DNA of 64,000 nucleotides from Candidatus Calditenuis fumarioli. GTDB taxonomy: Archaea > Thermoproteota > Nitrososphaeria_A > Caldarchaeales > Calditenuaceae. The first letter of the stretch is position 1, and the number at the start of each line of letters is the position of its first letter. This document shows positions 11,396 to 54,728 of this stretch, piece by piece. The DNA lies in assembly GCA_030059665.1 (NCBI GenBank), contig JANVYR010000002.1, positions 352,001 to 416,000 on the forward strand, given 5' to 3'. The translations under genes were made by a program, and so were the position numbers. The notes below the pieces were generated by a model. It was not told where the DNA came from. It made no database searches and saw only the letters and a list, made by a program, of their open reading frames with translations.

Positions 11396-11427
11396 GGGAG
11401 GGTGGAGCGCTTTGGCATAGGGTGCGC
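11396..11427 (-). other. 3' arm of the pre-23S processing stem (bulge-helix-bulge)
   Basis: GCGCACCCUA-UGCC-AAA-GCGCUCCACCCUCCC pairs with 15112-15143 to give a 3-4-3 BHB. Confidence 0.9.
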
Positions 11428-12101
11428 GCCCGGACAGCTCGGGCGATTGGGAGTGGCGCGCTGAGGGCGTCCGGCTTACGCCTCCGCCCTTACACGCCCA
11501 CCCCATCAACCCCCTCTTCTAGGGGAGCCCTCGTCGGGGCCCAAGGCCCGTTGCCGGGCCCTATAGGCCCCGATTGGCCGCCTATTTTTGGGAGGGGCTT
11601 CGGGCTTAGATGCTTTCAGCCCTTATCCCCAGGGGCGCGGCTGCCCGGCGTCGCCCTGTAGGACGACCGGCACACCGTTGGCCCCGGCCCTCCGTTCCTC
11701 TCGTACTAGGAGGACCTTGCCCTCAGGCGGCCCGCACCCCCAGCAGGTAGAATCCGACCTGGCTCACGCCGGTCTAAACCCAGCTCACGTTCCCCTTTGA
11801 TAGGCGAGCAGCCTCACCCTTGGCCCCTGCTGCGAGGCCAGGATGGGAAGAGCCGACATCGAGGTACCAAGCCGCGGGGTCGATGGGGACTCTCGCCCGC
11901 GACGAGCCTGTTATCCCTGGGGTAACTTTTCTGTCACCACCGGCCCCCACTGGTAGGGGCCGATGGATCGCTAGGCCCGGGTTTCCCCTCAGGACCCCTT
12001 GCGTTCGAGGGTCCTGTCAGGCCGGCTTTTGCCCTTGCACTCTACAGCGGGTTTCTGTCCCGCCTGAGCCGACCTTTGGGCTCCCCCGATATCTTTTCGG
12101 G

Positions 12102-12132
<31 letters not shown>

Positions 12133-13061
12133 CCGTTGTCCCAGGGCACAGGCCCCGGTTAGCGGGACAGCCCCAGGTGGCCGGTGTTACATTGGCGCCT
12201 CCCCGGGCCCCCGGAGAGGCCCGGATCGACGGCTCCCGGCTACGCTATGCACCCAGAGCCATCCCGCAGCGACAGGCTGCAGTAAAGCTCCACAGGGTCT
12301 TCTCTCCCCGCTGGGGGTCCGTGGACTGTTCGTCCACGTTATGTGGGTTCACGGGGCTCCGGGCCGGGACAGTGGGGCCCTCGTTGATCCATTCGTGCGC
12401 GTCGGAACTCACCCGACAAGGCATTTGGCTACCTTAAGAGGGTCAGGATTACCCCCGGCGCTAGCCGGCCCTTATCCCGGTTGGACCCGGGTTTCAGGTA
12501 CCGGTGCTGGCCAGGATTGAGAAGCCGTTCAAAGCCTTTCGGCCTTGCGGCTTCCTATGTTTTTATTAAACAGTCGGGACCCCCTTGTCACTGCGACCTG
12601 CCAACCCCTCCTCGTCGGAGAGGAAGGCAGGCACCCCTTCTCCCGAGGTTACGGGGCCAATTTGCCGAGTTCCCTGGCCCGGAGTCACCCCAGACGCCTT
12701 GGCCTTCTCAGCCAGGGGCACCAGTGTCGGATCTAGGTACGGTCTCCCGGGATCGTTCCGGACCCCCTTTTCACTGGCTCCAGGGATCGGCCGAAGCGGC
12801 ATGCGCCGCCCCGTCACGCCTTCACCCGGTTCTCGCCATTACGGCCCTCCCCGGGCTTCAGCGCTTGGCCGGAGCTACGGCCCCGGTCGGCCTACCCCGA
12901 AGCGTCAGGGGTCCGGCCTGCGTTGCCGCACCTACCCGGGAGGCGCCGGAATCTTAACCGGCTTCCCCTTCGGCCTACCCGGTTAAGGTCGGCCTTAGGA
13001 CCGGCTTACTCCCGGCTGACGACGCATTGCCGGGAAACCCGTGCCCTTCCGGCGGAGGGGA

Positions 13062-13610
13062 TTCGAGGAGAGGGAGAAGGGCCGTCCGTTCCCAAAAGGT
13101 GAACAAGTCAAGGAGGAAGGAATTGTAAACCCTAATTGAGAGAGTTCCAAAATTTGAGCGTGATGTTCGCGATCCACGCCTCACTACGGATTTGCGGAAT
13201 TGCGACAAGGGTATATTCAGCAGATTTGACCAATATCTCTCCAATTTCTGTACGACCTCGTCACGTTCCCATTTAGCGAGTTTAATTTGCAATCGAGGTT
13301 TAATCGCACTTCTCGTCACCCCTAATATCTCCAAAAATTTGACCATGGCCAGAAGCTTATTAGGGTCGCTATTAACGAATTCGAACCTCGTCTTCACGGT
13401 TTTGGGCCTCTTGGTTCCTTCACCTGCGTAGAGGCCTATAGCGTACCCGAATAAGATCGCGGGGACGAATCGTCGGATAACGATGCTTCCCACCCGGCCG
13501 TTTCGGTACTTATATTGAATGATTATCCTGTCGTCCTCAATTATCTTCCTAATCACTTTGCTAAAGTTCAAGGTTTCGGGAACCAATTCGGCAATATCTA
13601 CACAAATCAT
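13062..13610 (-). CDS. Intron-encoded single-motif LAGLIDADG-like homing endonuclease (183 codons within the intron, no stop in the linear intron)
   Basis: FGYAIGLYAGEG helix, FEFVNSD beta-strand, YWS...IPLSQF and GTLSIRV motifs; Lys/Arg-rich; low GC. Confidence 0.78.
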
Positions 13611-13678
13611 GCCCTTTACTTCGTAGATTTGTTTAAGACTGGTTATTTAAAGATTATTGGACGGCCCTGACCCTCTCT
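13062..13678 (-). mobile_element. 617-nt archaeal-type (BHB) intron in 23S rRNA
   Basis: Sharp drop in GC. Removal restores GAGGGGUGGGAA|UCCCCUC. BHB: outer helix GAGGGG/CCCCUC, central helix UGGG/CUCG, bulges AAA and AAU, long inner stem GAGAGGG..GGGCCGUCC. Confidence 0.92.
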
Positions 13679-15111
13679 TTCCCACCCCTCTTCGCTGTCT
13701 ACTACCACCGGGATCTGCATTGGCGGCCGGTCCACGGGACCTCACGGCCCCGCTTCTGCCCAGCCGCCACGCCCCCCTACCCCCACCCGTGCAAGGCACG
13801 GGTGAGCCCGGGTTTCGGCGGCCCGCTTAGACCCGTCAATTTTCGGGGCCCCCGTCCTCGGCGGGTAAGCTGTTACGCACTTCTTAGCCGATGGCTGCTT
13901 CTAAGCCTACGGCCCCGCTGTCTCAGGACGGGGACGCCCTTCGGTTTGTCACTTAGCGGGCACTTAGGGGCCTTAACCCGAGGTCTGGGTTGTTCCCCTC
14001 TCGGTCCTGGAGCTTACCCCCAGTACCCCACTCCCGGGATCTACGGCGCCCGCGGGTTCGTAGTTTGAAAGGAGAGCGGGGCCTCATCGGCCCCTTTCTC
14101 CCCTATCAGTGCCCTACCCCGCGGGCAACCTCCCCCGGGGCTGTCCTGCGAGACACTTCGGGGGGAACTAGCTATCACCGGGCTCGGTTAGCTTTTGACT
14201 CCTAGCCCCAGGTCAGGGGACCGAATTGCACGTCAGGACCCCTATTCGGGCCTCGACCGGGGTTTCCCCCGGCTTCACCCTGCCCAGGGCTAGATCGCCC
14301 GGTTTCTAGCCTCACGGGCGTGGCTACAGGCCCTTTCGGACCCCGCCCCTCGCCGGGGCTAACCCCGGCTGCGGGCGCTCGGTTTCCCTACGCCTCCGGG
14401 CTTACAGCCCTTAGACTCGCCACACCCGTGAACTCCCCGGCCCGTGTTTCAAGACGGAGCGGACGACCCTGGGATTGTCCCCGCGCGGCCCCTTGCGGGG
14501 CCTTGACGGGGATTTCCCTTTCGGGCCGCCCTCGTCTGTTACCGGCCGGTTTCAGGCGCTTTTCACCCCCCTCTCGGGGTACTTTTCACCTTTCGCTCAC
14601 GCTACTGGTCCGCTATCGGTCTTGGGACGTATTTAGCCTTGGAGGCCAGTGGCCCCCAACTTCCCGCACCATATCCGAGGTGCGGTACTCTGGGATCCGG
14701 GGCATCACCCATCCGCCCTTCGCCTACGGGGCTGTCACCCTCTGTGGCCCCCCATTCCAGGGGAGTTCGGCTCGGGCTTCAGGGTGGACCCCCGGCCCTT
14801 AACCCCACATTCCCCCTGAGTTTCCCCAGGGGGTTCGGTTTGGGCTTCTCCCCGTTCGGTCGCCCCTACTAGGGGAATCTCGTTTGATTTCTTCTCCTCC
14901 CCCTACTTGGATGCTTCCGTTCGGGGGGTTCCCGATCCCGGCTCGAGGCCGGGACCGCGGCGAGCCGAAGCCCGCCGCAGGATGTCCCATTAGGAGATCC
15001 CCGGATCTACCCCTGCCTGCGGGTACCCGGGGCTTATCGCAGCTTGCCACGTCCTTCGTCGGCGCCCAAGCCGAGGCATCCACCGGCCGGCGTACCCCTG
15101 TCCGGGCCAAG

Positions 15112-17735: not shown

Positions 17736-18067
17736 GGAGGCGGCGGGTAGGGCCAGGGGGCTAGCCCTCCCCTTCCCGTAGCGGACCCGAAACGGGCTCA
17801 CGCGGGGGCCAGCAACCGGCGGCGTACGGCCGCGTTGCGGGGCTAGGGAAGGCAGGGGGCGGATGAGCGCGCGTCCCGGTGGAGGCGGGTAGGGCCCCAC
17901 GCCCTCCGTAGGGAGGGCCTCTGGGGTCCGCGCGCGCCGAACCGCGTCAGGCCCGGGAGGGAGCAGCGCTAAGGCGCGGCTCGCCTGCTGCCGGGAAAAC
18001 GTGCGGGACGCTGCCGGCCTGACCGATCCCCGCACCGCGACCGGAAACCGCCGGAGCCGCCGCCTCC
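17736..18067 (+). ncRNA. ffs: Archaeal SRP (7S) RNA
   Basis: Helix-8 motif TCAGGCCC-GGGA-GGGAGCAGC; terminal helix GGAGGCGGC/GCCGCCTCC; about 330 nt; GC-rich and intergenic. Confidence 0.9.
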
Positions 18068-54641: not shown

Positions 54642-54728
54642 CGCCGGGGGCGGGATTTGAACCCGCGCGGGCCTCATCGGCCCAGTGGCTTAGCAGGCCA
54701 CCCCCCTACCGGGCTAGGGAACCCCGGC
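54642..54728 (-). tRNA. tRNA-Ser(GCT), no intron, CCA not encoded
   Basis: GCCGGGG/CCCCGGC acceptor stem; anticodon arm GTGGC-CTGCTAA-GCCAC; long variable arm; GGTTCAAATCC T-loop; discriminator G. Confidence 0.95.

Follow-up and report, generated by a model that had tools for sequence, protein, structure and literature searches.

The sole 23S rRNA gene of Candidatus Calditenuis fumarioli carries a homing-endonuclease BHB intron at an unusual site, and the protein encoded in this intron is a relative of the LAGLIDADG enzymes that is invisible to Pfam. The reading frame of the putative endonuclease reaches the last base of the intron without meeting a stop codon, and it can be closed in two ways, either across the junction of the circularised intron or by continuing into the rRNA exon. 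Closure on the circle is a genuine property of the element, shared with introns of the I-DmoI type, and a junction-crossing ORF is thus not new in kind. The sequence allows the stop to be supplied by the circle and does not require it, and the circle reading is partly supported.

The window analysed here is a stretch of 64,000 nt (positions 352,001-416,000 of contig JANVYR010000002.1, assembly GCA_030059665.1) from a genome of 1.57 Mb with 62% G+C, in which the 23S rRNA gene is the single match and hence the sole copy in the assembly. The Rfam alignment of archaeal LSU rRNA covers this gene end to end, except for a 618-nt insert at model position ~1417, in a hairpin loop where RF02540 has 1 nt. 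In E. coli numbering, taken from the conserved hairpin GGGUGAAAAGCCC (rrlH of MG1655, positions 1279-1291), the insertion lies between 23S positions 1287 and 1288, in the loop of helix 47; a blastn comparison of exon 2 with E. coli genomes gave no match. Once the intron is removed, a 7-nt loop UGGGAAU remains. Its counterparts are UGAGAA+1 in RF02540 and UGAAAAG in E. coli (1282-1288), and the mature RNA thus regains the conserved 7-nt consensus. The intron-less site reads GAGGGGTGGGAA/TCCCCTC. To our knowledge, the helix-47 site (1287/1288) is not among the classical intron sites of archaeal 23S rRNA. Among named organisms, the nearest relatives in which this element also occurs are 'Archaeon HR02' and Candidatus Wolframiiraptor gerlachensis.

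Other RNA genes of this genome also show peculiarities. Two contig ends share the 16S rRNA gene between them (G000:C2:574600-575471 and G000:C1:856414-857045), with a break at model position ~829 that may hide another intron or a repeat. This gene lies ~210 kb from the 23S gene, so that the rRNA genes are unlinked. At 17916-18002 on the plus strand of the window, this archaeal genome matches the Rfam family Bacteria_small_SRP with 42 bits (threshold 40), a match that most likely reflects a piece of the archaeal SRP RNA or arose by chance. An 87-nt tRNA match (RF00005, 53 bits), long enough for an intron, is found at 54642-54728 on the minus strand.

The 23S gene, the intron and the elements of its splice sites are located in the window as follows:

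11427-15108, minus strand: 23S rRNA gene that hosts the intron (Rfam RF02540, 2638 bits, model positions 1-2987)
13062-13678, minus strand: BHB intron of 617 nt in the helix-47 loop, based on BHB geometry (17/17 pairs) and covariation
13681-13690, minus strand: 5' BHB strand in exon 1, with exon helix GAGGGG (13690-13685) and central helix UGGG (13684-13681)
13678-13680, minus strand: 5' bulge AA/A, read from the sequence by hand
13659-13677, minus strand: 5' strand of the intron stem, made of GAGAGGG, a 2-nt loop and AGGGCCGUCC; in the circle frame, this strand also codes for REGQGR
13055-13087, minus strand: 3' strand of the stem and BHB, with GGACGGCCCU at 13087-13078 and CCCUCUC at 13074-13068
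13055-13067, minus strand: 3' BHB parts within that strand, namely central helix CUCG (13067-13064), bulge AA/U (13063-13061) and exon helix CCCCUC (13060-13055)

The assignment of 13678-13062 as an archaeal BHB intron is secure at the level of sequence. The motif consists of an exon helix of 6 bp, a central helix of 4 bp and an intron helix of 7 bp, followed by a 10-bp helix, with two 3-nt bulges on opposite strands. All 17 BHB pairs are present in the window. In 11 homologous introns, taken from genomes and metagenomes and examined with the same geometry placed at their splice sites, 186 of 187 pairs were found, with compensatory changes in all three helices. The joined intron ends fold with -51.5 kcal/mol (z = -5.6). 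As this thermodynamic fold gives the outer and inner helices without the weak U-G/G-U central helix, the BHB call is based on geometry and covariation. A 3-nt 'GAA' repeat makes the position of the cuts ambiguous by up to 3 nt, which changes neither the spliced rRNA nor the sequence of the circle. The splice sites proposed in the preliminary description (13678 and 13062) match this canonical geometry, which is kept in the 11 related introns. The genome encodes two EndA proteins (PF01974) and one RtcB (PF01139). The latter, located just outside the window, is a single 974-codon open frame (G000:C2:419269-422019) whose RtcB domain is interrupted by ~1.2 kb between profile positions about 83 and 46-426; the ligase expected to close the intron into a circle is thus itself the one with an intein-sized insertion.

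The coding frame, its continuation into the exon and an A/T-rich box upstream of it occupy the following positions:

13062-13610, minus strand: homing-endonuclease ORF of 183 codons, without a stop, whose last codon ends on the last intron base
12975-13061, minus strand: exon 2 stretch reached by read-through, 28 codons SPPPEGHGFPGNASSAGSKPVLRPTLTG and the TAG at 12977-12975
13645-13651, minus strand: TTTAAAT box, which spans intron nt 28-34 and precedes the ATG by 41 nt

The family alignment, in which the N-terminus xDLxxLIPE is conserved, supports ATG 13610 as the start. This ATG lies 68 nt from the 5' splice site, and the frame of 183 codons that it opens runs to the end of the intron exactly as described earlier. 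The two continuations given in that description were reproduced as well. When 13062 is joined to 13678, the frame goes on with REGQGRPIIFK and ends at the TAA at 13645-13643, giving 194 aa; in the resulting 617-nt ring, this TAA occupies intron nt 34-36 and the ATG nt 69-71, with 32 nt between them. Reading on through the genome gives an ORF of 211 aa (12975-13610) that ends in the exon, and the public gene call for this genome (P0001) also extends into exon sequence. The peptide LLEREGQGRPIIFK would tell the circle form from the exon-terminated form, which is marked by LLESPPPEGHGFPGNASSAGSK. What did not stand is the claim that the stop exists 'only' after circularisation, because the exon stop closes the frame at 211 aa and because any frame is closed within 34 nt of the 5' splice site.

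In fact, the intron has a stop in each of the three frames by nt 34 (at nt 34, 23 and 30), so that a stop soon after the junction is no more than chance would give and needs no selection. In the relatives, the tails added on the circle in the used frame measure 2, 6, 9, 9, 9, 11 and 27 codons, and this frame is not closed earlier on the circle than the two control frames. The tail has 11 residues here and 18 in the 77%-identical HR02 copy; only REGQGR/REVQGR, which corresponds to the 5' stem strand, is shared, and indels follow. A tail peptide maintained by selection was considered and rejected: where L002, L003 and L029 differ from one another, the opposite stem strand changes with them, and the tails of the window and HR02 differ by indels. 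Since the junction tail is not conserved and the crystallised I-DmoI constructs have no tail, distinct functional 'isoforms' are unlikely, and there is no sign in the sequence that they matter. The idea that the splicing state decides which isoform is made was overstated. Upstream of ATG 13610, no Shine-Dalgarno match to the 16S 3' end GGAUCACCUCC was found.

The 183-aa protein gave no hit against Pfam or NCBIfam and nothing meaningful against the sequences of the PDB. As direct sequence searches provided no identity, this was obtained from a family profile, VIA-align and the ESM Atlas. An exhaustive search returned 311 relatives, 35 of which were used for the family alignment. The alignment exhibits the motifs GLYAGEGTK, EFxNSxP, FWS, IPxxQFxKP and GTLSIR, and the conserved residues are E64, G65, N80 and W127. 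The first motif holds a LAGLIDADG-type helix (GLYAGEG) that ends in the acidic E64 followed by Gly; among the 35 relatives, E64 is nearly invariant and G65 is invariant. The only PDB hit of the family profile is I-DmoI (E 2e-4), with GLYAGEGTK aligned to its second motif, GLYVAEGDK, and Pfam LAGLIDADG_3 (PF14528) is matched by 7 of the 35 relatives (best E 7e-5).

Enzymes of the LAGLIDADG type have an alpha-beta-beta-alpha-beta-beta-alpha core fold. For the present protein, the confident AlphaFold2 model (mean pLDDT 94.9) predicts an N-terminal beta-sheet domain (residues 1-50) and an alpha/beta core (51-183). A Foldseek search of this model against the PDB gave no match at E <= 0.001. With VIA-align, Z values of 4.4-6.7 were obtained for the TliVMA intein endonuclease, I-DmoI, E-DreI, I-Vdi141I and WhiA, mixed with unrelated folds, and in the ESM Atlas the model reached TM 0.74-0.78 to archaeal clusters annotated as LAGLIDADG_3. 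The protein is accordingly read as a predicted divergent one-motif homing endonuclease of LAGLIDADG_3-like type, in agreement with its designation as a homing endonuclease in the preliminary description. By analogy, the enzyme presumably acts as a homodimer that cuts the intron-less site, and a homodimer would fit this target because it encodes a hairpin and is hence near-palindromic.

Introns at the same site were collected from metagenome contigs and genomes, and the hosts of this family are Aigarchaeota-like hot-spring archaea, soil Thaumarchaeota and AT-rich uncultured archaea. Six other intact lineages (L001, L002/L028, L003/L004, L029, L008 and L010) also have no stop inside the intron. 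They use two codon phases at the junction, and each is closed after 2-27 codons on the circle. From these sequences, the open 3' end is a family trait. In each of these six, 8-11 codons separate the conserved Trp of the last helix from the 3' splice site; in free-standing relatives that have a stop, the protein continues for 8-15 residues beyond the same Trp. These similar distances indicate that the domain is complete at the end of the intron, and the gene is so compact that its last helix is coded by the 3' strand of the splicing stem. In the window, the 3' stem and BHB strand overlaps the final 9 codons of the ORF. The 183-codon frame itself is identical and intact in two independent metagenome contigs (L026 and L027). 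Identical DNA is present in hot-spring samples, on contigs Ga0209394_1008601 and Ga0105162_1006235.

Two introns at this site depart from the common arrangement. An AT-rich intron (30% G+C) in Ga0213870_1000001 (L033:843-1476) contains a TGA that closes its ORF within the stem strand, 12 nt short of the 3' splice site; it is the only same-site intron found with an own stop. The 513-nt intron of ERZ27248082 k141_127194 (L009:1543-2055) is a multiple of 3 with one stop-less frame, which would be endless on the circle. Rolling-circle translation was considered for it and rejected, because the close relative L042 keeps a normal leader and ATG; L009 is a derivative with a ~97-nt deletion relative to L042, having lost the leader, the ATG and the first ~14-20 codons. 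In the soil Thaumarchaeota L034-L036, the exon closes the frame after one codon.

Many copies are decayed. The closest one, from HR02 (L006/L011, BEHE01000007.1; intron at reverse-complement positions 1280-1887 of L006; 77% protein identity), lacks one base in a run of G residues directly upstream of the LAGLIDADG motif, and the resulting 1-nt frameshift reflects either a young pseudogene or an assembly error. Stops or frameshifts also affect the copies of Wolframiiraptor gerlachensis (L015) and Thaumarchaeota archaeon TA_8 (L013), and L030, L031, L037 and L042 are broken. The TA_8 23S gene that carries the decayed helix-47 BHB intron also holds a group I intron (L013:2741-2990, VBPK01000067.1; RF00028, 67 bits).

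A different way of ending the gene is seen in L023, a free-standing bacterial relative (801-1490) that combines an HTH with the same nuclease core. It has no stop of its own and its ORF reads through a complete tRNA-Thr gene (L023:1380-1453), so borrowing a stop from a flanking RNA gene occurs without any circle. Other free-standing relatives (L014, L016 and L017) start a few hundred nt past tRNA genes.

The precedent for a frame closed on a circle is the I-DmoI intron in the 23S rRNA of Desulfurococcus mobilis (mucosus), reportedly described by Kjems and Garrett in 1985 and 1988 and by Dalgaard et al. in 1993. In the literature, this intron is said to form a stable circle encoding a 194-aa endonuclease, reviews cite it as an early example of a protein-coding circular RNA, and intron circles have been proposed to act as messengers (PMC5387670, PMC11724312). 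In the open literature, no paper was found that states where the I-DmoI stop lies. The precedent was tested indirectly, with the DNA of a Pyrobaculum relative and the Swiss-Prot protein sequence. The I-DmoI relative of Pyrobaculum aerophilum lies in a 545-nt 23S intron (L018:1176-1720, NMUF01000036.1) whose ORF has no stop inside the intron. Only 25 nt separate its ATG from the 5' splice site, too few to accommodate a promoter. On the circle, the frame gains RAEGG and a TAA, giving 178 aa, with 537 of 545 nt coding and stop and start 8 nt apart, while the exon reading would add 59 residues. The public annotations of this ORF (232 aa) and of the Thermoproteus IC-061 protein Q6L6Z5 (234 aa) include ~59 rRNA-derived residues. 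Swiss-Prot I-DmoI (P21505, 194 aa) ends in ...NPLPPERAGGYT, that is, in RAGGYT, whereas the crystallised constructs end at ...NPLPPE, without this tail. Judging from the two sequences, RAGGYT is evidently the homologue of the junction-crossing RAEGG, and the published 194-aa I-DmoI frame is therefore the circle reading, in line with the statement of the preliminary description that the I-DmoI ORF crosses the junction.

By analogy with I-DmoI, the circle may be the messenger, its stop being supplied across the junction; this is our tentative first choice, held with somewhat less than even confidence. According to this proposal, EndA would excise the intron and RtcB would ligate it into a stable circle, on which the ribosome would cross the ligation junction, pass through the 5' stem strand and terminate at the TAA at intron nt 34-36, 32 nt before the ATG, releasing 194 aa. 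The 11-residue tail would then be a by-product of the RNA stem and not a functional module, and synthesis of the enzyme would depend on splicing. Consistent with this are the canonical BHB, the restored mature loop, the presence of EndA and RtcB genes, the open ORFs of the six other lineages and the independent precedent of the Pyrobaculum relative of I-DmoI. Against it stand the unconserved tail, the chance-level stop after the junction, the own TGA of L033, the endless frame of L009, the missing Shine-Dalgarno sequence, the overlap of the TAA with the TTTAAAT box and the stop-less L023 gene, which has no circle. In a bolder version of this proposal, which is rather unlikely, the circle would be the obligatory messenger, with the frame closed by RtcB ligation alone and the endonuclease hard-wired to the successful splicing of the sole 23S rRNA. 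Given the short distance from stop to start on the ring (32 nt here and 8 nt in the Pyrobaculum relative), ribosomes that terminate could then re-initiate without any 5' end, and the intron would be a natural ring messenger in a lineage whose initiation is otherwise leaderless.

Circular translation is favoured only narrowly over transcription from within the intron, and the two are near-equal. The TAA that would close the circle frame is the end of TTTAAATAA and overlaps TTTAAAT, which, from its genomic distribution, is this organism's TATA consensus, a putative promoter-type box. If it acts as a TATA box here, a short-leadered mRNA would begin ~14-19 nt before ATG 13610 and be translated to the TAG at 12977-12975, giving 211 aa, and the 'borrowed' stop would reflect the way in which a compact mobile gene tends to end, right at its insertion boundary. 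Without the 5' BHB strand, such a transcript could undergo neither splicing nor circularisation. This possibility, which we regard as rather less probable than even and only a little behind the circle, draws on the rarity and placement of the box: TTTAAAT has only 37 copies in the genome on both strands, most of them 20-35 nt before ORF starts or ~31-33 nt before tRNA genes; at least 6 precede tRNA genes and ~10 lie 20-35 nt before the starts of ORFs of at least 60 aa. Shuffling the AT-rich leader produces it with P = 0.005-0.012, and TATA-like hexamers peak genome-wide at -36 to -28 of long-ORF starts. Nearly all lineages have an A/T-rich box directly behind the 5' stem; counted by hand on printed 5' ends, its distance to the start codon is ~33-42 nt in ~7 of 8 lineages and ~27 nt in L010. 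The lack of a Shine-Dalgarno sequence, the read-through of tRNA-Thr in L023 and the one-codon closure by the exon in L034-L036 fit as well. However, the box is 41 nt from the ATG, beyond the typical 20-35 nt, and a leader without a Shine-Dalgarno sequence must be assumed; AT-rich boxes could equally be multi-frame stops, and the 28-residue Pro/Gly-rich tail derived from rRNA would be longer than the circle tail. Moreover, the Pyrobaculum intron is equally open-ended without room for a promoter, and a promoter is thus not needed for the habit.

Two other explanations are considered improbable. The ORF might be translated from the unspliced pre-rRNA, giving 211 aa, or from the linear excised intron, giving a 183-aa non-stop product freed by rescue factors. 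In favour of this, archaeal translation is coupled to transcription, the exon continues the open frame, and public gene callers annotate exactly the exon reading (P0001-P0004). Nevertheless, any ribosome translating the final 9 codons would unwind the 3' BHB strand and block splicing of the sole 23S gene, non-stop products are normally wasteful, and neither RNA offers a Shine-Dalgarno sequence. It is similarly improbable that the gene is intact but unexpressed in this host, as a recent or decaying selfish element for which the closure of the frame has no consequence. The many decayed same-site copies (HR02, L015, L013, L030, L031, L037 and L042) are in keeping with such silence, as is the presence of a single 23S gene, which leaves no empty target. 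Opposed to it are the intact 183-codon frame, identical in L026 and L027, the conservation of catalytic and core residues (E64, G65, N80 and W127) and the confident structural model (pLDDT 94.9).

If the circle is indeed the messenger, the intron family would represent a natural protein-coding circular RNA independent of I-DmoI, with a frame completed by RNA ligation, and it would offer a tractable system to study translation initiation by archaeal ribosomes on an endless RNA. If instead the internal promoter is the real source, open-ended homing-endonuclease genes would simply borrow their stops from the conserved RNA gene that they invade, and annotation would be affected, as rRNA-derived tails are present in the public gene calls P0001-P0004 and in the entries of 232-234 aa from Pyrobaculum and Thermoproteus. 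In either case, the 23S 1287 helix-47 site and the Pfam-invisible one-motif LAGLIDADG family extend the catalogue of archaeal rRNA introns.

Among known systems, a close parallel is I-DmoI, with which the element shares a BHB intron in 23S rRNA, excision (predicted in the present case) by the splicing endonuclease, an ORF that nearly fills the circle and a catalytic Glu (GLYVAEGDK in the second motif of I-DmoI, GLYAGEGTK in the family described here). In contrast, I-DmoI is a two-motif monomer and is encoded in another 23S region, whereas the protein described here has one motif and an N-terminal beta-sheet domain, lies in helix 47 and is not recognised by Pfam or NCBIfam. The Pyrobaculum relative (L018) agrees with the window in an ORF that is open through the 3' splice site and meets an in-frame stop soon after the 5' splice site; they differ in the leader, which is 25 nt in Pyrobaculum and 68 nt here, with the promoter-like box in between.

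Other LAGLIDADG enzymes share some of these features. I-Vdi141I from Vulcanisaeta distributa (Vdi141.L1927; Nomura et al. 2008) is likewise encoded in an archaeal 23S BHB intron, is itself a single-domain homodimeric enzyme, and had both its ATG and its stop added by PCR for expression (PMC2602781). Its structural match to the present protein is weak (Z 4.4, 84 residues, 16% identity), its site is 1927 instead of 1287, it has no additional N-terminal domain, and phmmer detects no similarity between the two. I-ShaI and similar proteins are one-motif LAGLIDADG homodimers of rRNA insertions in CPR bacteria (Tsurumaki et al. 2024; PMC11270868). The CPR-type bacterial relatives found here (P0005, P0006 and others, from Minisyncoccota/CPR-like genomes) hold the motifs LYAGEG, NSDP, YWS, IPLSQFRK and GTLSIR. 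Unlike the archaeal intron, enzymes of this type come from group-I-like insertions or from free-standing genes beside tRNA genes, with neither BHB nor circle, and they present an N-terminal HTH in place of the beta-sheet domain.
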